From a virus (Duplodnaviria; Heunggongvirae; Uroviricota; Caudoviricetes): 8,412 nucleotides of DNA. Shown piece after piece: positions 1 to 8,412 of this stretch (the first letter of the stretch is position 1; the number at the start of each line of letters is the position of its first letter). The stretch lies in IMG/VR virus record IMGVR_UViG_2690316148_000008; one strand, given 5' to 3'. Made by a program: the position numbers and the translations under genes. Below the pieces are notes generated by a model, which was not told where the DNA came from, ran no database searches, and saw only the letters and a list, made by a program, of their open reading frames with translations.

Positions 1-31
1 TGGTAGTGTCCGCTATTGCCAGTACACCTCA
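1..31. repeat. Left arm of 31-bp terminal inverted repeat (partner 8382-8412)
   Basis: tggtagtgtccgctattgccagtacacctca is the exact reverse complement of the last 31 bases of the window; identity stops immediately beyond. Confidence 0.9.
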
Positions 32-116
32 GGGTATAAGGGGTTATGGCCACCGGACTACCAAACGGCTGCCAGCCCTCTTTCAGTTTATGTGTCAGCT
101 TTTCCGCAAGATCTGA
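1..116 (+). CDS. Short ORF fragment beginning at the window edge (ATG completed by one base outside the window); first 10 codons identical to the N-terminus of the right-edge ORF, then diverges; stop TGA at 114-116
   Basis: Manual translation in frame 3 gives (M)VVSAIASTPQGIRGYGHRTTKRLPALFQFMCQLFRKI*; bases 1-31 are the exact reverse complement of 8382-8412. Likely a recombination or assembly remnant rather than a functional gene. Confidence 0.25.
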   Translation, partial: VVSAIASTPQGIRGYGHRTTKRLPALFQFMCQLFRKI

Positions 117-351
117 CGGCGGCGCCGCCCTGACAACATCATAGTGTTTAAATGCCATGGTTCTTTCCACCATCTGAAAAATAATTCTTTAAAATACCTG
201 ACATGTAATACAGAAAAAACACAAAACCATACCTTAAATAAAAACCTGATTATCAAGCAGATATGCATGGATAAACTACAAGACGAGATATAAACCACCC
301 TGCATTTAAATAAACAATAAACAACATCAGAAAAATAATTCTGCTCTATGG

Positions 352-380
352 TTTACATTCAAAAATATCATTTATACTTT
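352..380 (+). promoter_or_regulatory. Candidate sigma70 promoter for the 111-aa ORF (TTTACA at 352-357, 17-nt spacer, TACTTT at 375-380)
   Basis: Hexamer match by eye in AT-rich DNA upstream of ORF 419-754; SD-like AAGGA at 408-412, 6 nt before the ATG. AT-rich sequence yields many promoter-like hexamers, so this is weak. Confidence 0.3.
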
Positions 381-418
381 TCAGAACATCACCAGCAAGG
401 CATAAACAAGGAAACTAA

Positions 419-754
419 ATGAAGTGGATTGTGATTGATACAGTTATCCAGCCATCATGCGGAATATCTTTTTCAGTCATATGGAGTAAAATAAAATTAA
501 TAATCTGGTATCAATCGGATGCTTTCTTACCTCCTGAAAGTATATTTACACTGACTCACACAGGCATCATGCTCAATAACAAAGTGCTACCTGTAACCAT
601 TTACAACGTAGTACCATTCAATAAAACATTCTGGAATTTAATCAAAAACAGCCAGGAATGCCCTACAAATACAGATAACGTATTGAATGAATGCTTTAAT
701 AACCGTTGCACTCTGCAAATATGTCCTTATGGACTAAAACAACAAAGTCCATAA
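419..754 (+). CDS. Hypothetical 111-aa protein in a low-GC island; five Cys, three in the C-terminal 30 residues; no obvious signal peptide; no family recognised
   Basis: Open frame of 111 codons in very AT-rich DNA, where stop codons are frequent by chance; AAGGA Shine-Dalgarno 6 nt upstream; perfect 9-bp hairpin 35 nt downstream; convergent with the phage late operon. Confidence 0.5.
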
Positions 755-788
755 GGAGTTTACTCACATCTGACAAAATCAATATAAA

Positions 789-810
789 CAGCCCCTCCGG
801 AGAGGGGCTG
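789..810. terminator. Perfect 9-bp stem / 4-nt loop hairpin (cagcccctc-cgga-gaggggctg); on the minus strand it is followed by a U-rich tract, on the plus strand it follows the 111-aa ORF
   Basis: Inverted repeat read directly; complement of 781-788 gives UUUAUAUU after the stem on the minus strand. Possibly a bidirectional terminator between convergent units. Confidence 0.5.
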
Positions 811-1005
811 GAGAGTGGCGCTATGTGCCATTGCATGGTGCCGGGTGCCTCCCGGTGAATTCAGTACCAGCACCTGAATCCGCGATTATCCCATATACCT
901 ACTCGCTGATTGCCCCTCCGCACAGGGGGATTCACCATGCCAGTTTCTTTTAACAAACTCCCCGCAAAACAGACAACTGTCAACCGTCTGAATTGTGAGA
1001 CATTT

Positions 1006-1031
1006 AAAAAAAAGGCCCGCAAAAGCGAGCC
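1006..1031 (-). terminator. Rho-independent terminator downstream of the tRNA cluster
   Basis: Minus strand reads GGCUCGC-UUUU-GCGGGCC followed by 8 U (A-run 1006-1013 on plus); stem 1014-1031 with one mismatch; 15 nt beyond the 3' end of the last tRNA. Confidence 0.6.
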
Positions 1032-1045
1032 AGGGAAAATAAGTG

Positions 1046-1122
1046 TGGCGCGTTGTACTGGATTCGAACCAGTGACCGATTGCTTAGAAGGCAATTGCTC
1101 TGTCCGGCTGAGCTAACAACGC
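1046..1122 (-). tRNA. argO: tRNA-Arg (anticodon UCU), 77 nt, encoded CCA
   Basis: Manual cloverleaf: acceptor GCGTTGT/ACAACGC, D-stem GCTC/GAGC, anticodon stem ATTGC/GCAAT with loop CTTCTAA, T-arm ACTGG-TTCGAAT-CCAGT, discriminator G, CCA. Symbol follows the ileZ-argN-argO arrangement recalled from lambdoid/Stx phages. Confidence 0.85.
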
Positions 1123-1135
1123 ATGATGCAGATAA

Positions 1136-1212
1136 TGGACCGCCATCGGGGACTTGAACCCCGCGCAGCCAGCTTCGAAGGCTGGCGCTCTTTCCTGATG
1201 AGCTAATGGCGG
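1136..1212 (-). tRNA. argN: tRNA-Arg (anticodon UCG), 77 nt, encoded CCA
   Basis: Manual cloverleaf: acceptor CCGCCAT/ATGGCGG (unusual C1-G72), D-stem GCTC/GAGC, anticodon stem CCAGC/GCTGG with loop CTTCGAA, T-arm CGGGG-TTCAAGT-CCCCG. Exact 5' end is uncertain by 1 nt. Confidence 0.75.
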
Positions 1213-1219
1213 TATGTGA

Positions 1220-1295
1220 TGGTGGCCCTTGCTGGATTTGAACCAGCGACCTGGCGATTATGAGTCGCTCGCTCTCACCACTGAGCTAAAGGGCC
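1220..1295 (-). tRNA. ileZ: tRNA-Ile2-like (anticodon CAU, presumably lysidine-modified to read AUA; Met cannot be excluded from sequence alone), 76 nt
   Basis: Manual cloverleaf: acceptor GGCCCTT/AAGGGCC, D-arm GCTC-AGTGGTGA-GAGC, anticodon loop CTCATAA, T-arm GCTGG-TTCAAAT-CCAGC, discriminator A, CCA; overall resembles my recollection of E. coli ileX. Confidence 0.8.
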
Positions 1296-1335
1296 GGGAG
1301 CCGCATAATAACGACGCGTAATTAATTCTTCAATA

Positions 1336-2394
1336 TCATCCGTTCTGGCTGACTAAATCCTGTACTTCCCGAACCGTCTGCTCAAAACGTTCAGTCTCCA
1401 GCTCAACGCCAATTGCACGACGCCCGAGCGCCAGTGCCGCTTTCACTGTCGAACCCAACCCCATGAAAAAATCTGCAATCAGGTCACCCGGACGACTGCT
1501 AGCGCTGATTATCTGCTGCAGCATTTCTGCCGGTTTTTCGCACGGATGTTTCCCGGGATAGAACTGCACCGGTTTATGCGTCCACACATCGGTATACGGC
1601 ACCTGCACCGTCACGCCAAAATACCGCCGCAGATGTTTATATTCACTCAGCAGCTCCGCATACTGCCGGTTCAGTGAGGTATACGTATCCACCAGCTGGT
1701 GGTGGAGCTTTTCCAGTTCACCACGCCGATGCTTCTCTTCTGCCACCCGGGCAAACAGCGCCTGTAATTTCAGATAATCGCTTTCATTCGGCAACTGCCA
1801 CTGACCGGCACTGAACCAGTGCGACACCATGTTTTTCTTTCCTGTGGCATCTGCAATCTGTTTTGCCGTTATCCCCAGGGCAGCTCGCGCATCACGAAAG
1901 TAAGAAATCAGCGGGGCCATCACATGCTGTTTCAGTGCACTGCCCTTCGCCGCATACCCGGCATCTTTCGGACGATACGGCCCCTGATAATGTTCCGCGA
2001 ACAGAATGCGCTCTGTGGCGGGGAAATACGCCCGCAGGCTTTCCTTGTTGCATCCGTTCCAGCGTCCGGACGGCTTCGCCCAGATAATATGGTTCAGCAC
2101 ACTGAAGCGTTCACGCATCATGATTTCGATATCAGATGCCAGGCGATGACCACAGAACAGGTAAAGACTTCCGGCAGGTTTCAGCACCCGCCAGAACTGC
2201 GCCAGACACTGGTCCAGCCACTTCAGGTAATCATCGTCGCCCTTCCACTGGTTATCCCAGCCCTCAGGCTTCACTTTAAAGTACGGCGGGTCCGTGACTA
2301 TCAGGTCAACAGAATTTTCGGGTAACGACCGGATAAATTCCAGGCAGTCGGCGTTGATTAACTCACAACTGGATATTTTTACAGTATTAAGCAT
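1336..2394 (-). CDS. Orphan DNA methyltransferase, beta-class N6-adenine/N4-cytosine type (motif IV DPPY near the N-terminus, motif I FxGxG near the C-terminus)
   Basis: 352-aa ORF; VTDPPY early and FFMGLGST late is the motif order of beta-class amino-MTases (N6_N4_Mtase family); no restriction endonuclease partner is visible in the window. Confidence 0.85.
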   Translation of the reverse strand: MLNTVKISSCELINADCLEFIRSLPENSVDLIVTDPPYFKVKPEGWDNQWKGDDDYLKWLDQCLAQFWRVLKPAGSLYLFCGHRLASDIEIMMRERFSVLNHIIWAKPSGRWNGCNKESLRAYFPATERILFAEHYQGPYRPKDAGYAAKGSALKQHVMAPLISYFRDARAALGITAKQIADATGKKNMVSHWFSAGQWQLPNESDYLKLQALFARVAEEKHRRGELEKLHHQLVDTYTSLNRQYAELLSEYKHLRRYFGVTVQVPYTDVWTHKPVQFYPGKHPCEKPAEMLQQIISASSRPGDLIADFFMGLGSTVKAALALGRRAIGVELETERFEQTVREVQDLVSQNG

Positions 2395-2486
2395 GGATCA
2401 TTAAGCCTGTCTCTGATAGGCTCATTCTGCTTTTGCGCAAAGCAGTGGGCCTGAGGTTTGCTTGTGAACCCAACGCATGAGCAGAT

Positions 2487-2517
2487 GGCTGGTGGGTGCC
2501 CCTAACACCCACCAGCC
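2487..2517. other. Perfect 12-bp stem / 7-nt loop hairpin (ggctggtgggtg-cccctaa-cacccaccagcc) in the methyltransferase leader; each arm contains a Chi octamer
   Basis: Inverted repeat read directly; GCTGGTGG at 2488-2495 (plus) and its complement at 2509-2516. Confidence 0.6.
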
Positions 2518-2530
2518 GCCCATTTACCAC

Positions 2531-2558
2531 AAATAAAAAAGCCTTCACTGCGGAAGGC
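2531..2558 (-). terminator. Rho-independent terminator (stem gccttc/gaaggc, loop actgcg, then UUUUUUAUUU on the minus strand)
   Basis: Hairpin 2541-2558 and A-run 2531-2540 on plus; the stop codon of the 65-aa ORF (2545-2547) lies inside the stem. Confidence 0.6.
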
Positions 2559-2742
2559 GTCTGTAACAACCGAACTGATAGTCTGCCAGACCCGCCATAA
2601 CCAGCTGGGTCAGTATTAACTGGCAGCGTTCGCGTGAAAGGTAAGTATTCTGCGCTATCTCCCCGACTGTCGCCGGTTCGGTAACGCTTAATTCATTAAA
2701 CACCACTCTGGCGGTTTCTGTCATATCCTGCTGTTTTAGCAT
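2545..2742 (-). CDS. Small (65 aa) putative helix-turn-helix DNA-binding protein
   Basis: AAGGA Shine-Dalgarno 6 nt upstream of the ATG; HTH-like segment TVGEIAQNTYLSRERCQLILTQL; sits between the late promoter/terminator and the methyltransferase. The terminator overlapping its 3' end keeps the coding call uncertain. Confidence 0.45.
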   Translation of the reverse strand: MLKQQDMTETARVVFNELSVTEPATVGEIAQNTYLSRERCQLILTQLVMAGLADYQFGCYRRLPQ

Positions 2743-2860
2743 GTCTTTTCCTTTTCCGGTTAACGTGACACACCAATAACTCTTGTCGAAAAAGCCAGCA
2801 AGCTGAAAGACAGGTATTCACCGCCACCAGCGCGTTTACTGTACTGACGCGATTTCAGTC

Positions 2861-2886
2861 ATAAAAAACCCGCTCGGCGGCGGGTT
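2861..2886 (-). terminator. Candidate tR'-like rho-independent terminator about 40-65 nt downstream of the pR'-like start
   Basis: Minus strand reads AACCCGC-CGCCGA-GCGGGUU followed by UUUUAU; 7-bp stem read directly. Confidence 0.55.
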
Positions 2887-2918
2887 GTAGAAACTCTTCT
2901 AACGTCAGGCATAAAACG

Positions 2919-2961
2919 CCCATCGTTATGACGAATTTACCACAGATTCCGGAAAAATCAA
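2919..2961 (-). promoter_or_regulatory. pR'-like Q-dependent late promoter: -35 TTGATT (2956-2961), 16-nt spacer, -10 TAAATT (2934-2939), then AACGATGGG (2927-2919) matching the lambda pR' sigma-dependent pause element as I recall it
   Basis: Hexamers and pause-like element read on the minus strand immediately downstream of the Q stop codon (2967); arrangement parallels lambda pR'. Confidence 0.6.
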
Positions 2962-2966
2962 CCTTG

Positions 2967-3623
2967 TTACCTAGTTACCTTTTTTAACTGCCGCTCAGCC
3001 CATGCTTCTTCAATATCAAACCGGGTCACCAGCGCATCATAAAATTTCTTAACTGTTTTTTCCCATGACGCGCGTGTTATCTGGTTTGTCACCTCGCATA
3101 TAGCATTAAATGCCTCCGTTGATGGTAGTCTTTCATAGCCACGACCACCACAACGCTGGCAGTCTCTGATAACAGGCATACCACGTTTTACCGACTCTTC
3201 ACGATGAATGGCGACACCACGCCCACGGCAATCCTTACAGGCGGTGGAAACCTCACCCTTTCCGCCACACTCCGGACAGGCAACTTTTACCACCTCTCTG
3301 ACTTTTTTCCATTCTTCCCAGTAAGACGGATACACACCTTTCGTACACTTTGCCCATACCGGCGGCTTACCATCCGGATACTGGACCTTGTTTGTAAAAA
3401 CTACGCTTTCAATAAATTTTTCCCCATAGCAACAAGGGCACTGCTTTTTACTCGCTGCGCTGCGGGCATAATCCTCAAAAGCGTACGAAGCCATAATGCG
3501 CATCACTACCGGTTTTATTTCTGCCGGAAGTTTTCTCAACGCCGCCACACGATCGCACCGACTGAGTGCATAATCTGCCAGTAATTCTGTTGCCCGCGCC
3601 CTGTCATTCATACTGATGCCCAT
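2967..3623 (-). CDS. Q: Antitermination protein Q, lambda-Q family, copy 1: carries the true C-terminus; the frame stays open upstream to the N at 3650, so it is 5'-truncated at the junction
   Basis: 218-aa ORF with CPCC...CPECGG...CKDCRGRG...CQRCGGRG zinc-ribbon motifs and a C-terminus (YDALV...VTR) resembling lambda Q from memory; followed by a pR'-like promoter. Confidence 0.75.
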   Translation of the reverse strand: MGISMNDRARATELLADYALSRCDRVAALRKLPAEIKPVVMRIMASYAFEDYARSAASKKQCPCCYGEKFIESVVFTNKVQYPDGKPPVWAKCTKGVYPSYWEEWKKVREVVKVACPECGGKGEVSTACKDCRGRGVAIHREESVKRGMPVIRDCQRCGGRGYERLPSTEAFNAICEVTNQITRASWEKTVKKFYDALVTRFDIEEAWAERQLKKVTR

Positions 3624-4257
3624 TTTCCCCAGGAACGCAGAAAACCCCANAATTTCTTAACTGTTTTTTCCCATGACGCGCGTGTTATCTGGTTTGTCAC
3701 CTCGCATATAGCATTAAATGCCTCCGTTGATGGTAGTCTTTCATAGCCACGACCACCACAACGCTGGCAGTCTCTGATAACAGGCATACCACGTTTTACC
3801 GACTCTTCACGATGAATGGCGACACCACGCCCACGGCAATCCTTACAGGCGGTGGAAACCTCACCCTTTCCGCCACACTCCGGACAGGCAACTTTTACCA
3901 CCTCCCTGACTTTTTTCCATTCTTCCCAGTAAGACGGATACACACCTTTCGTACACTTTGCCCATACCGGCGGCTTACCATCCGGATACTGGATCTTGTT
4001 TGTAAAAACCTCGCTTTCAATAAATTTTTTTCCGTGACAGCAGGGGCACTGTTTTTTGCTCGCCGCGCTACGGGCATAATCTTCAAACGCATACGAAGCC
4101 ATAATACGCATCACTGCCGGTTTTATTTCTGCCGGGAGTTTTCTTAACGCCGCCACGCGATCACACCGACTGAGTGCATATTCTGTCAGCAATTCTGTTG
4201 CCCGCTCTCTGTCATTCATACTAATGCCCATTTTCCCAAGGAACGCAGAAACCCCCA
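3043..4257. repeat. Two diverged direct copies of a ~607-bp Q segment (3043-3649 and 3651-4257) joined at a single N (3650)
   Basis: Manual alignment: the two units are near-identical over roughly the first 300 bp (about 1 difference seen) and clearly more divergent over the rest, with substitutions and 1-nt indels. Confidence 0.85.
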
Positions 4258-4396
4258 TCTCAGCCCGATTCTGTGTCATGCCCTGCGCGGCCATCACATC
4301 AGTGATACTCAGCGCATCTTTCGACGTTGAGGCCGATGCATCAGTCAGGCCGGGGGATTTTGGGGAGTAGTATTTCGGTAAATCTTCCAGTTTCAT
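3608..4396 (-). CDS. Q: Antitermination protein Q, lambda-Q family, copy 2: carries the true N-terminus; homology-supported coding is 3651-4396, and the ORF tail 3608-3649 is a frameshifted read-through across the N at 3650
   Basis: 262-aa ORF; N-terminus MKLEDLPKYYSPKSP...DVMAAQGM resembles lambda Q; same Cys motifs as copy 1; start codon overlaps the rusA stop (ATGA). Confidence 0.75.
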   Translation of the reverse strand: MKLEDLPKYYSPKSPGLTDASASTSKDALSITDVMAAQGMTQNRAEMGVSAFLGKMGISMNDRERATELLTEYALSRCDRVAALRKLPAEIKPAVMRIMASYAFEDYARSAASKKQCPCCHGKKFIESEVFTNKIQYPDGKPPVWAKCTKGVYPSYWEEWKKVREVVKVACPECGGKGEVSTACKDCRGRGVAIHREESVKRGMPVIRDCQRCGGRGYERLPSTEAFNAICEVTNQITRASWEKTVKKXWGFLRSWGKWASV

Positions 4397-4767
4397 TTTT
4401 TGACCTGCTCTTCATGCATTATGGGGTAAATCTTCACCCCCAGACGTCCACCAGATACTGGCTGACCACGAACGATATTGATTTCATCAAACTGCTCATC
4501 GTCCATTAACACTCCCGCATGTGTCAGTGCATCCAGTGGTGCTTTCAGGATATTGTCCAGGTCACGACGGCGCTTATCCGGTGGCTCTGCAATAATCTTT
4601 ATCGCCAGTCTTCCGGACAGGCTTAATTTCAGTCGCTGCTGACGGACAATAAGCGCCACATCCCGGCGATAACGCTCACCGGCTTTTGATACAAAATATG
4701 TGTTGTCACGACGTCGCCAGTAAGTATTCACCGTCGGCGGATAAGGTAAAATAAACTCATGGCGCAT
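4393..4767 (-). CDS. rusA: Crossover junction endodeoxyribonuclease RusA (Holliday junction resolvase)
   Basis: 124-aa ORF with RusA-like pattern LPYPPTVNTYWRRR...RRRDLDN...SGGR; stop overlaps the Q start (ATGA); start overlaps the stop of the upstream 85-aa ORF. Confidence 0.85.
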   Translation of the reverse strand: MRHEFILPYPPTVNTYWRRRDNTYFVSKAGERYRRDVALIVRQQRLKLSLSGRLAIKIIAEPPDKRRRDLDNILKAPLDALTHAGVLMDDEQFDEINIVRGQPVSGGRLGVKIYPIMHEEQVKK

Positions 4768-5024
4768 CAGCGCAGCACCTCCTGCACCAGTTTTTCAAAC
4801 TTTCCGACTCTGGTTTCCAGCTCTGCCACACAGTCCACCAGCTCATCTACTGCTTTCTGTGCGCGATGCTTCGCCTGCATCAGTTCCCGAAGCGCGGGTA
4901 CCATATCTTTACGGATAGCGTCTTTTGTTATGCCCGTTTTTTCGAGTTGTTCAGCATGACGCAGCATTTCCTGCGCGTGTTTACGCAATTGTTCAGGGGT
5001 AAAAGTCATTGTCTGGTTGTTCAA
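4767..5024 (-). CDS. Hypothetical small phage protein (85 aa from a TTG start with GGAG SD 8 nt upstream; in-frame ATG at 5009 would give 80 aa); N-terminus resembles the 114-aa ORF at 7639-7983
   Basis: Open frame; MTFTPEQLRKHAQEM is similar to [16 protein letters not shown] in ORF 7639-7983; 1-nt stop/start overlap with rusA. Confidence 0.55.
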   Translation of the reverse strand: MNNQTMTFTPEQLRKHAQEMLRHAEQLEKTGITKDAIRKDMVPALRELMQAKHRAQKAVDELVDCVAELETRVGKFEKLVQEVLR

Positions 5025-5076
5025 AAGAAACGCTCCATCTTACTGCTGTCAGTTCGTTTATTACTGTATCTGCGCG

Positions 5077-5143
5077 NNNNNNNNNNNNNNNNNNNNNNNN
5101 NNNNNNNNNNNNNNNNNNNNNNNNNNNNNNNNNNNNNNNNNNN
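5077..5143. other. Assembly gap (67 N)
   Basis: Run of n characters; separates the 5' UTR of the 85-aa ORF from a truncated second rusA copy. Confidence 0.95.
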
Positions 5144-5306
5144 TTCCGGACAGGCTTAATTTCAGCCGCTGCTGGCGAACAATAAGCGCCACTGCCCGGC
5201 GATAACGCTCCCCGGCTTTTGATACAAAATATGTGCTGCCACGACGACGCCAGTAAGTGTTCACCGTCGGCGGGTAAGGTAAAACAAATTCTATGCGCTC
5301 GGTCAT
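5144..5306 (-). pseudogene. rusA: 5' fragment (about 54 codons) of a second, diverged rusA copy, truncated by the N gap
   Basis: Encodes MTERIEFVLPYPPTVNTYWRRRGSTYFVSKAGERYRRAVALIVRQQRLKLSLSG; nucleotide sequence clearly similar to 4610-4767 (roughly 90% by eye); start lies 1 nt after the DUF968 stop. Confidence 0.7.
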
Positions 5307-6365
5307 TTATGCTTTCCACTTCAGAACACCCGAATTTCTCGCGTGCATTAAAAAACGAATCAGCAACAACAGCTGACTGCCGTGTTTCTCTTCAAAATCT
5401 TTTACTCCGGCATGTAGTTCGTTACGGCATTTACGGCATAACGGAATAACAAACAAATCATCAGCCTTTGTTCCCATCCCTCCCAGTCCATGACCAATGA
5501 TGTGATGCGGATCATCTGCCTGATTGCCACACGTCATGCATTTCTGCGTTTTTACCCAGCGCGTGTATACAGGCATCTCTTCCCGTTGTGATTTCTGGCG
5601 CTGGAGATACTGAGCCGGTGACTCCGGATCAACGGCAATGCTGACCACCGTCTTTTCCTGTGGTGGGTTCTGTTGCTGGTGGACGTGAGGCAGTAACGCA
5701 ATATTTTTTGTGCGCTGCTTCAGTATGCTGGTGGCTGTCTGCTCTCCCGGTATGATGTCGCTTTCACTGTACACAGAGCGAATTTTTTCCGCACGCAACC
5801 CCAGCGAACGACGTAATACCGCTTCCGGTAGCGCGTCCGCCACCTGATTGCGGACCGCCCACCAGGATAATTCAGCCAGAGATAATTCACGCTCCTGCGT
5901 ACCGCTTATTGCGTGACCGATGACGTCAATCATCCATGCTGACAGGTTTTGATGAGCAAGTTGCTCGAGTGATTCGGATGTCTGGTCACGCAGCTGGTTG
6001 TCGCAGTGCCAGCACAACACCATTGCGCCGGTACCATAACGGTGAATGACGGTTTCGCTGTGATGATAATCGCCGTGTGGCCACTGGCAGGATTTAATAT
6101 GGCGCAACAGCCAGTCAGACAATGCACCAGCACCACCAGCAGCACGAATCACCCGTGCGTTACTGAAAAACGGCAGCAATGTTTTGTCTTCCACCAGCGG
6201 CTGGCGAGCGGCAGGAACGACCCCGGACGGCAGATTACGCATGCTTTTTGGTTCCGGCTCCACCAGTATTCTGCCGTTATGGAATGCTGACATTGATTCA
6301 CGGCCTGGCTTAACGATAACCAGACCGAGTTCCGGTACCAGAACAGGTCGAAGTAATACCCGCAC
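5307..6365 (-). CDS. DUF968-family prophage protein (YdfU-like) with a C-terminal HNH/zinc-finger-like motif
   Basis: 352-aa ORF; C-terminal CMTCGN...HHIIGHGLGG...CRKCRNELH (CxxC...HH...CxxC...H); sits immediately upstream of rusA, the position I recall for ydfU-like genes in lambdoid prophages. Confidence 0.7.
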   Translation of the reverse strand: MRVLLRPVLVPELGLVIVKPGRESMSAFHNGRILVEPEPKSMRNLPSGVVPAARQPLVEDKTLLPFFSNARVIRAAGGAGALSDWLLRHIKSCQWPHGDYHHSETVIHRYGTGAMVLCWHCDNQLRDQTSESLEQLAHQNLSAWMIDVIGHAISGTQERELSLAELSWWAVRNQVADALPEAVLRRSLGLRAEKIRSVYSESDIIPGEQTATSILKQRTKNIALLPHVHQQQNPPQEKTVVSIAVDPESPAQYLQRQKSQREEMPVYTRWVKTQKCMTCGNQADDPHHIIGHGLGGMGTKADDLFVIPLCRKCRNELHAGVKDFEEKHGSQLLLLIRFLMHARNSGVLKWKA

Positions 6366-6366
6366 A

Positions 6367-6645
6367 TTACCTCCAGATCCGTTGCTGGAATGTGCGGGAC
6401 GGACGCGTTGGCCGTTCGGAGTAAGGGAGCCTGACGGAGATTATCCAGTGACGGTAGTCGAGGCTAAGGGCTTTTTTAACCTCGCATCCGCGCCTGCGGT
6501 AACACTGAATGAGCCATTCGGCCTGTTCTTCAGTGCATGGGGGATGCTGGTACCAATCAGATTTAAATGCGTGAGAGCGCCGCCCGTGCCTGCTGGCAAA
6601 GACGGCTGAATTATCAGAATTGTGTAGTCTGGAATTTTGCGCCAT
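6367..6645 (-). CDS. Hypothetical small protein (92 aa)
   Basis: GGAG Shine-Dalgarno 7 nt upstream of the ATG; stop 1 nt before the DUF968 start. Amino-acid composition is unremarkable and no family is recognised. Confidence 0.45.
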   Translation of the reverse strand: MAQNSRLHNSDNSAVFASRHGRRSHAFKSDWYQHPPCTEEQAEWLIQCYRRRGCEVKKALSLDYRHWIISVRLPYSERPTRPSRTFQQRIWR

Positions 6646-6711
6646 CGGCTTTCTCCGGTGGCACAGTGTTACTCAACAGGGGTTCAGCCCTGCGCTGAAT
6701 TGTAGATGAAT

Positions 6712-6975
6712 TCACTCATCTTCAAAAGCAGAAAAACCAGCCTTAATCCCAGCTTCTTTCAGAGACGGCAACGATGTGACAAATTCATTTGCACGCGAAA
6801 TAAAACCATCCGTCACAAGCCCATCCACAAAATGAATTAACGCAGCTCCACTCTTCCTTTGTTGAGATTGCAAACATCTAATGCGGCAATGGCTGACAAT
6901 AGCGCCATTCTCAACGCGCACAGTATAGAGGCCATCTTCACTAAAAATTTCACGTAATTCTTCGATTTTCATCAA
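6712..6975 (-). CDS. Hypothetical small protein (87 aa)
   Basis: GGAAGGA Shine-Dalgarno 8 nt upstream; candidate promoter directly upstream; no family recognised. Confidence 0.5.
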   Translation of the reverse strand: MMKIEELREIFSEDGLYTVRVENGAIVSHCRIRCLQSQQRKSGAALIHFVDGLVTDGFISRANEFVTSLPSLKEAGIKAGFSAFEDE

Positions 6976-7053
6976 CAGAATCCTTCCAGATAAATAGCAC
7001 TCCCCTGTTCGGGGTCCATCCCTCTTCTCCCTGCGCGCTACTTAAGTGAGTCG

Positions 7054-7081
7054 ATTCTATCTGCGAAGGTGCGCGAATCAA
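7054..7081 (-). promoter_or_regulatory. Candidate sigma70 promoter for the 87-aa ORF (-35 TTGATT at 7076-7081, 16-nt spacer, -10 TAGAAT at 7054-7059)
   Basis: Hexamers read on the minus strand about 20 nt downstream of the hok terminator. Confidence 0.45.
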
Positions 7082-7100
7082 ATTCACCGGAAATAAACAA

Positions 7101-7122
7101 CAAAAAACCCGCCGAAGCGGGT
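7101..7122 (-). terminator. Rho-independent terminator of the hok transcript (stem cccgc/gcggg, loop, then UUUUUUGUUGUUUAUUU on the minus strand)
   Basis: Hairpin 7108-7121 and A-run 7102-7107 on plus; about 70-90 nt after the hok stop, matching the usual hok 3' UTR length. Confidence 0.65.
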
Positions 7123-7191
7123 TAAGTGTGGGTGCATTGAGGATGCCTGACCCATCAGAGGTGGCGAGGGATTTCTCCCCCGCCTGGTCTC

Positions 7192-7347
7192 TTACTCCTC
7201 AGGTTCGTAAGCTGTGAAGACAGCGACCTCCGTCTGGCCGGTTCGAATTCGTACCTCGCAGAGGTCTTTCCTCGTTACCAGTGCCGTCACTATGACGGTT
7301 AAACAGATGACGATCAGGGCGATTAACATCGCCTTTTGCTGCTTCAT
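7192..7347 (-). CDS. hokD: Hok/Gef-family membrane toxin (51 aa), HokD/RelF-like; the open frame extends in-frame upstream to an ATG at 7404 (70 aa), which may be a mok-like initiation region
   Basis: MKQQKAMLIALIVICLTVIVTALVTRKDLCEVRIRTGQTEVAVFTAYEPEE matches my recollection of E. coli HokD and the Hok consensus (CLT...TRK.LCE.R); AAGGAG SD 9 nt upstream of the ATG at 7347. Confidence 0.85.
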   Translation of the reverse strand: MKQQKAMLIALIVICLTVIVTALVTRKDLCEVRIRTGQTEVAVFTAYEPEE

Positions 7348-7516
7348 AGCCTGCTTCTCCTTGCCTTTCGGCACGTAAGAGGCTAACCTAGATTTGCCGT
7401 TCATAGATTGAGCCTCAGATTAATGTTAAGCGTCTTGCCGGACGCGTAATGTTAACTGGGGCTTTTCTCTATCTGCCTTTTGGTGTTCATGCCTGAGACA
7501 GATAGCCTCAAGCACC

Positions 7517-7551
7517 CGCTGCAATTCTACTTAACTCTCCTTTTCCCGCAA
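7517..7551 (-). promoter_or_regulatory. Candidate hok promoter (-35 TTGCGG at 7546-7551, 16-nt spacer, -10 TAGAAT at 7524-7529), predicted start near 7517 giving a ~170-nt leader
   Basis: Hexamers read on the minus strand; predicted 5' end coincides with a 12-nt element (7506-7517) complementary to the 3' UTR (7130-7142). Confidence 0.5.
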
Positions 7552-7638
7552 ACCGTTTTTATCCCCAGCGGCAAATCGAATACACCACCAGCGCCACCGC
7601 CATCGCAATTCCTACCGTTGTTAATGCTTCAGGCCAGG

Positions 7639-7983
7639 TCATCGTAAAATATCCTCCACGCTTATCAGTCCGTTCCGCTCCAGATAACTCATCGCCTTAT
7701 CCGGTAATTTGCAGTCTGGCTTCGCTTTCCTCAGTTGCCAGGTTAACTGCTTTACCAGCATGGTTAACTCATCGACCAGACGCTGATATCCCACTGGTTT
7801 GTATTCATGCAATTTACCGGCTGGCTCTGCTGCCAGCGATACCAGTGCGATTTCCAGAACAGCAATATCCATCTTATATGTGCGGATGATGTCATGGTCG
7901 ATTGTGCCCGGTATGCACAGTCTCTGTGCTTCAATAGTCTCCTCTGCGTGAGCTATTAACTGCTCTCTGGTAAAAGTCGTCAT
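7639..7983 (-). CDS. Hypothetical small phage protein (114 aa), translationally coupled to the upstream 55-aa ORF
   Basis: Start ATG overlaps the upstream stop (ATGA); N-terminus resembles the 85-aa ORF at 4767-5024 and its middle ([12 protein letters not shown]) resembles the 55-aa ORF ([11 protein letters not shown]). Confidence 0.55.
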
Positions 7984-8147
7984 GCCGTAGCCCCTTCTTG
8001 ATATTTTTCAAACCAGAACACAACCGGCTCTGCTTCCAGCGATGCCAGCGCAATCCGTGCCAGTTCCATTTGTTCACCACGGGTAAGCCCGTTTTCAAGC
8101 GGGTTTTTAATGAACAATTCAATACGTTCTTTGGTAATAGTGGTCAT
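7980..8147 (-). CDS. Hypothetical small protein (55 aa), absent from the supplied ORF track because it is below the length cutoff
   Basis: Manual translation: [55 protein letters not shown]; strong GGAG Shine-Dalgarno 6 nt upstream; stop overlaps the start of the 114-aa ORF. Confidence 0.5.
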
Positions 8148-8157
8148 GTGTTACTCC

Positions 8158-8412
8158 TTAACCCGCAGTGCTTTCAACTGATGAGGGGAACAAAATCTTT
8201 TCATCAAACCCTGCATTCATATCATGAACAGCAACACACCAATCCATCGACNNNNNNNNNNNNNNNNNNNTCGACGAACGATTATCAAGAGCCTCCATGA
8301 TTTCATCCATGCGGCGTAGGTCATACAGGTAAATGCTTTTATCGCCAATGGTGTAAAAGCCAATTTTTTTCGGTGATGGATGAGGTGTACTGGCAATAGC
8401 GGACACTACCAT
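8158..8412 (-). CDS. Hypothetical protein (84 codons), start ATG at the window edge (may extend beyond); interrupted by a 19-N gap at 8252-8270
   Basis: Open frame MVVSAIASTPHPSPKKIGFYTIGDKSIYLYDLRRMDEIMEALDNRSS...; stop TAA at 8158-8160 overlaps the SD of the next ORF; the first 31 nt are repeated inverted at the left window edge. Confidence 0.4.
   Translation of the reverse strand: MVVSAIASTPHPSPKKIGFYTIGDKSIYLYDLRRMDEIMEALDNRSSXXXXXXXSMDWCVAVHDMNAGFDEKILFPSSVESTAG
8382..8412. repeat. Right arm of 31-bp terminal inverted repeat (partner 1-31)
   Basis: Exact reverse complement of bases 1-31. Confidence 0.9.

Follow-up and report, generated by a model that had tools for sequence, protein, structure and literature searches.

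An apparent tandem duplication of the antiterminator gene Q in a draft lambdoid prophage scaffold is almost certainly an assembly artefact

Introduction

In lambdoid phages, the antiterminator Q modifies RNA polymerase at the late promoter, and the modified enzyme reads through the terminator. The draft prophage sequence considered here raises a simple question about this gene. A large segment of Q is written twice, head to tail, with one ambiguous base between the copies, and one may ask whether the strain carries a partially duplicated antiterminator or whether the duplication was made when the draft was put together. The DNA that was analysed, hereafter the window, is the entire 8412-nt draft WGS record CXDF01000163.1 (assembly GCA_001253095.1) in reverse orientation. 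We conclude that the tandem duplication of Q is almost certainly a draft-assembly artefact, in which two overlapping contig ends were joined by a single N.

The repeat and the reading frame of Q

Self-comparison of the window places two direct copies of a 607-nt unit at 3043-3649 and 3651-4257, in ungapped register, and the single N at 3650 is the exact boundary between them. The first-pass annotation had described a Q unit of about 607 bp in tandem with exactly one N in between, and all three sets of coordinates were verified. The features of the Q locus, which occupies the minus strand, are the following:

2867..2886, minus strand: G+C-rich intrinsic-terminator-like hairpin with a T run, 81 nt 3' of the Q stop codon
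2967..3649, minus strand: end of contig A, 3' 683 nt of Q (allele X), stop codon included; PF03589 Antiterm, E=2e-41
3043..3649, no strand assigned: repeat copy 1, final 607 nt of contig A
3650..3650, no strand assigned: single N, read as a scaffold join over a negative gap, with no sequenced base; junction found nowhere else in the searches reported below
3651..4257, no strand assigned: repeat copy 2, opening 607 nt of contig B
3651..4396, minus strand: start of contig B, 5' 746 nt of Q (allele Y), amino acids 1-248; from ORF calls and colinearity with the prophage of strain FDAARGOS_944 (L002)

In self-BLAST the two copies are identical at 575 of 607 positions (94.7%), with no gaps. The 32 differing positions are unevenly distributed, with 1 in the first 343 nt of the unit and 31 in the last 264 nt, where identity between the copies is about 88%. 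The copies are thus near-identical in one half and diverged in the other, as had been noticed at first reading. A chance or low-complexity origin of a 607-nt repeat with this level of identity, lying inside a coding gene, was rejected.

The lone mismatch within the first 343 nt falls at 3297 in copy 1 and at 3905 in copy 2. Contig A has T at 3297 and the contig B copy has C at 3905; the colinear prophage of strain O17_K12a (L001) and that of FDAARGOS_944 also differ from T. The change is synonymous (AGA vs AGG) in an otherwise identical 343-nt segment, and could be either a private substitution or a base error.

The Q gene begins with the ATG at 4396 and ends with the stop codon at 2967-2969. 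The ATG lies on the contig that carries copy 2 and the stop codon on the contig that carries copy 1, in agreement with the earlier assignment of the N-terminus to copy 2 and of the C-terminus to copy 1. Two ORFs are called in this region. The first one (3608-4396, 262 aa) crosses the N and then continues as a 13-residue out-of-frame tail, and the second one (2967-3623, 218 aa) is the largest ORF starting at an internal Met on the contig A part of Q. The period of 608 nt does not divide by 3, so that neither Q ORF is full-length if the record is taken at face value. Taking out one period yields 822 nt, i.e., 273 aa, which is the length of Q as annotated in complete genomes.

The reconstructed 273-aa protein matches the Pfam family PF03589 with E=1.6e-53 and 179 bits, and the 218-aa ORF matches it with 140 bits, the gathering cutoff being 26.7. 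The reconstructed protein also bears DnaJ-like CXXCXGXG zinc-finger-like repeats. The gene has rusA directly upstream and, in colinear prophages, holin and lysozyme/lysis genes downstream. Judged by its predicted product, the reconstructed gene belongs to the PF03589 family and encodes a lambdoid late antiterminator Q of ordinary type. By domain, repeats and gene position, it resembles the 273-aa Q that RefSeq calls 'antitermination protein' and that is known from phage mEp460 and numerous E. coli prophages; at the DNA level, the Q-rusA region of phage mEp460_ev081 has 97% identity to it. The deposited gene departs from the known PF03589 Q in being broken up into truncated ORFs, one of 262 aa and the other of 218 aa, and with the artefact taken away no biological difference remains.

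The hairpin at 2867-2886 is probably tR', the promoter-proximal terminator on which Q acts. By analogy with lambdoid phages, Q would here let polymerase read through this hairpin. A simple consensus scan called no sigma-70 promoter in 2700-3050.

Three joins with the same signature

Ns are present in the window only at 3650, 5077-5143 and 8252-8270, and divide it into four contigs. The contigs, the two longer N runs and the flanks of the second one are as follows:

1-3649: contig A
3651-5076: contig B
4611..4765, no strand assigned: second overlap, left copy, 5' part of rusA on contig B, about 90% identical to 5144-5298
5077..5143, no strand assigned: second join, run of 67 N, negative gap
5144-8251: contig C
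5144..5298, no strand assigned: second overlap, right copy, start of contig C, 5' part of a different rusA allele, followed by DUF968
8252..8270, no strand assigned: third join, run of 19 N, negative gap
8271-8412: contig D

All three joins are negative gaps, the flanking sequences overlapping by 607, about 155 and 5 nt. At the third join, TCGAC is found on both sides of the 19-N run, at 8247-8251 and at 8271-8275; the colinear reference has it once, which gives a true gap of -5 nt. The overlap at Q is one case of a pattern seen at every join in the record, and the N runs of CXDF01000163.1 do not stand for missing sequence. The first-pass annotation had proposed a scaffold join between two prophage Q alleles; the position of the N on the unit boundary and the overlaps found at the other two N gaps both sustain that proposal. 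The N runs at 5077-5143 and 8252-8270, which share the overlap signature, had been overlooked there.

The record thereby resembles the negative-gap joins known from short-read drafts, in that the N falls at the boundary of the overlap, the ends remain unmerged since they differ, and the feature recurs at every gap. Some scaffolders, SSPACE and ABySS among them, may put one n where an overlap was expected but went undetected. A negative-gap scaffold join between two alleles, over a real locus with one intact Q, is in our judgment very likely the correct explanation.

Two natural alleles of Q

The diverged part of the repeat exists in two versions, both of which are common in nature. The contig A version, allele X (3386-3649), shows 100% identity across the matches listed and reaches at least 99% identity in 1,121 genome records. 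For the contig B version, allele Y (3994-4257), identity across the matches listed is 99.6%, O157:H7 strains included, and 598 genome records carry it at an identity of at least 99%. What distinguishes X from Y is a compact mosaic patch, in which 31 substitutions fall within about 260 nt (3994-4252 vs 3386-3644) and which is bounded by identical or near-identical flanks. In the Q frame, the codons that differ comprise 21 synonymous and 9 non-synonymous changes.

Compact allelic patches of this kind are typical of recombinational mosaicism among lambdoid phages, and alleles X and Y resemble the mosaic patches of lambdoid prophage genes in that 343 near-identical nucleotides are followed by 31 substitutions. 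On the strength of these sequence comparisons, the differences between X and Y are natural allelic variation. Such mosaicism accounts for the failure of the assembler to merge the two contig ends. An origin of the 32 differences in sequencing error was rejected: each version is found, at 99.6-100% identity, in hundreds of finished genomes, and the X/Y differences are mostly synonymous.

Provenance of contig B

Contig B differs from its neighbors in the prophage that it matches. It aligns with the FDAARGOS_944 locus (L002) as one 1426-nt piece at 97.3% identity, with 0 mismatches in 3651-3993, 31 in 3994-4252 and 7 over the next 824 nt, and it shares with that locus the gene order Q-rusA-hypothetical-replicative DNA helicase (dnaB). 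Contigs A and C are colinear with the O17_K12a locus (L001), in the order Q-rusA-DUF968; A ends at L001 position 5850 and C begins at 6204, a spacing of 353 nt. No match to L001 was found for window positions 4762-5076. Conversely, the only sequence of contigs C and D that matches L002 is an IS600 end at 8381-8412. Two features of contig B are relevant here:

4258..4610, no strand assigned: segment of contig B duplicated by neither A nor C, 353 nt, the length of the A-C spacing in L001
4393..4767, minus strand: rusA, Holliday junction resolvase, on contig B; PF05866

The segment at 4258-4610 is probably sequence common to both prophages. Read at face value, the order along the scaffold is truncated Q, N, Q, rusA, a hypothetical gene, the 3' end of dnaB, a gap, a partial rusA and DUF968, and this order makes no coherent prophage. 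The most likely origin of contig B is a second prophage, and the shared sequence would have led to its placement between A and C. The end of A has only 5 nt in common with B past the last mismatch, and the start of C has 22 nt in common with B ahead of the first mismatch; such short shared tails fit contigs that halt on entry into shared sequence. The suggestion that two different prophage Q alleles are involved, also made at first reading, is well founded, given that X and Y are both common naturally and that the gene order on contig B is unlike that of its neighbors.

The same artefact could also have arisen from two strains present in a mixed or contaminated culture, each contributing one allele. 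X and Y are each widespread in E. coli, and nothing examined ties the two to one chromosome. Against this, complete genomes commonly hold several Q-family copies, with up to 7 places matching this Q region and up to 4 matching the allele-specific segment, which makes co-resident prophages the simpler source. The gene order of B compared with that of A and C fits two different prophages as well. We thus consider a mixed culture improbable, and infer that X and Y belong to two prophages of one genome.

Comparison with finished genomes and search for the junction

The junction of a genuine tandem would be expected as contiguous sequence in independent assemblies. The part of the window from 2800 to 4600 (1801 nt) is at least 80% covered in 2,482 complete E. 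coli genomes. Among the matches listed, it maps as two pieces spanning 1132-1193 nt, a full span corresponding to the query minus 608, and phage records such as mEp460_ev081 show a likewise collapsed match. At the O17_K12a locus, Q is one 822-nt CDS annotated as 'antitermination protein', followed by rusA and the DUF968 gene. That finished genomes carry a single 822-nt Q at this locus agrees with the earlier prediction of one true Q of about 273 aa.

When a 180-nt query centred on the N was used, two pieces of 100% identity were recovered at opposite ends of a 607-nt span. This permuted order is the one to be expected if the 'junction' is merely the end plus the start of one unit. An 80-nt junction query, run against 5,426 complete E. 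coli genomes at E<=1e-20, a limit that only contiguous matches pass, gave no match. Similarly, a degenerate 29-nt junction pattern was absent from metagenome contigs and from GTDB species-representative genomes.

These results weigh on the other reading of the locus, namely that part of Q is truly duplicated in tandem in the strain, with one ambiguous base at the junction. The strain would then have a Q cut short at the C-terminus (248 aa and a tail in another frame) and, behind it, a Q that lacks its N-terminus and starts at an internal Met (218 aa). The copies do stand head-to-tail in one deposited record with one N between them, and unequal recombination between prophages can generate tandem duplications between diverged alleles, which lends this reading some general plausibility. 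Yet that part of the record has a single ambiguous base, which coincides with the unit boundary, and the two other N runs with the same overlap signature mean that three coincidences would be needed. The duplication would moreover have to accommodate a 608-nt period that breaks the reading frame, an incoherent gene order in which a partial rusA recurs after dnaB past the next gap, and a junction for which neither the complete genomes (5,426) nor the metagenome contigs nor the GTDB representatives gave a contiguous match. The first-pass annotation had kept a genuine duplication as the less likely alternative; we hold it to be very improbable, and no result of the present analysis speaks for it. 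Were it true, unequal recombination between X and Y would have produced one Q without its last 25 aa and another without its first 55 aa, and late-gene antitermination in the prophage remnant could be altered or abolished.

How the scaffold may have been built

The two-allele scaffold join can be laid out as a series of steps. First, the sequenced sample would have carried the Q-rusA region on two or more lambdoid prophages, whose Q genes agree over most of the gene and differ in a patch of about 260 nt. One prophage (P1) would correspond to contig A, the 353-nt bridge, contig C and contig D, and the other (P2) would have the order Q(Y)-rusA-hypothetical-dnaB and be the source of contig B. Second, contig A stops inside Q with allele X, and contig B starts inside Q with allele Y. 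Third, a paired-read scaffolder or a gap filler would have set B between A and C, a placement owed to the presence on B of the 353-nt bridge (4258-4610). The flanks of the bridge overlap but differ, so that they would have been left unmerged and covered by placeholder Ns (1, 67 and 19) over negative gaps. Finally, the real locus would have a single 822-nt (273-aa) Q upstream of the terminator-like hairpin, the tRNAs and the lysis genes.

As to which software left the Ns, we infer a scaffolding or gap-filling step, either of which could fail to merge ends that overlap and keep some Ns between them. One aspect of the contigs bears on this point: a contig that runs through a 254-nt exact two-copy repeat is unexpected from a plain k=31 de Bruijn graph, so that repeat resolution or edge extension, e.g., by gap filling, must be assumed. 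GapFiller extends both contig edges into the gap, and closes it only if the overlap is at least 10 nt and the inserted length is within 50 nt of the estimate (PMC3446322). Both SSPACE and GapFiller are greedy and capable of false joins, according to the paper on the Sanger pipeline (PMC5320598). An explicit rule equating a single N with a negative gap was not found in a literature search and is absent from the GapFiller paper (PMC3446322), and neither CXDF nor GCA_001253095 was found in the supplement of the Sanger pipeline paper (PMC5320598) or in a wider literature search.

Truncated Q in other assemblies

Seven other contigs (L004-L010) carry the identical 218-aa truncated Q. All of them start at window-equivalent positions 3623-3642, except that for L008 it is the match to the window that starts there. 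In one of them (L008), the first 28 nt ahead of the Q match are unlike the window. The recurrent break point in Q was not used in the argument, as it is largely a selection effect of looking up the exact product. What these contigs do show is that contig ends frequently fall within Q in short-read assemblies.

Record ends and neighboring genes

The remainder of the window carries insertion sequence ends, tRNA genes and small accessory genes:

1..31, minus strand: outer end of an IS600-family element at the scaffold stop, perfect inverted copy of 8381-8411 (31 nt, 100%)
419-754, plus strand: IraM/PmrD-family ORF
1046-1295, minus strand: cluster of three tRNAs located downstream of both Q and the methyltransferase gene, called by ARAGORN as Arg(tct), Arg(tcg) and a third with the anticodon CAT
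1336-2394, minus strand: N6/N4 DNA methyltransferase, 352 aa (PF01555), with a 65-aa ORF, between Q and the tRNAs
6712-6972, minus strand: 'Rem' (PF27490) ORF
7192-7347, minus strand: Hok/Gef-family toxin ORF
8381..8412, plus strand: outer 32 nt of an IS600-family element at the scaffold stop, matching L002 9637-9668, beside an IS600 transposase CDS

The tRNA with the CAT anticodon is called Met by ARAGORN and tRNA-Ile by RefSeq in the colinear prophage of O17_K12a. The cluster at 1046-1295 presumably resembles those located downstream of Q in Stx-type lambdoid phages. The methyltransferase gene and the 65-aa ORF are present in the O17_K12a prophage and absent from that of FDAARGOS_944, a further mosaic difference.

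The same IS600 terminus is found at both scaffold ends, which points to a prophage remnant bracketed by IS600 copies in inverted orientation or by a collapsed IS node. The IS/prophage junction of the record ends was found in no complete E. coli genome, and an IS600-rich background such as Shigella would be a guess.

Significance

The value of this locus is mainly that of a quality-control point; the duplication is not a biological feature and implies no new biology. The deposited record yields two spurious truncated Q proteins (262 aa with an X, and 218 aa) and also a partial duplicate of rusA, which are now apparent variants in protein databases. Draft-based counts of Q alleles, of Q copy number or of pseudogenised antiterminators, for instance in the Q typing of Stx phages, would be misled by such records.
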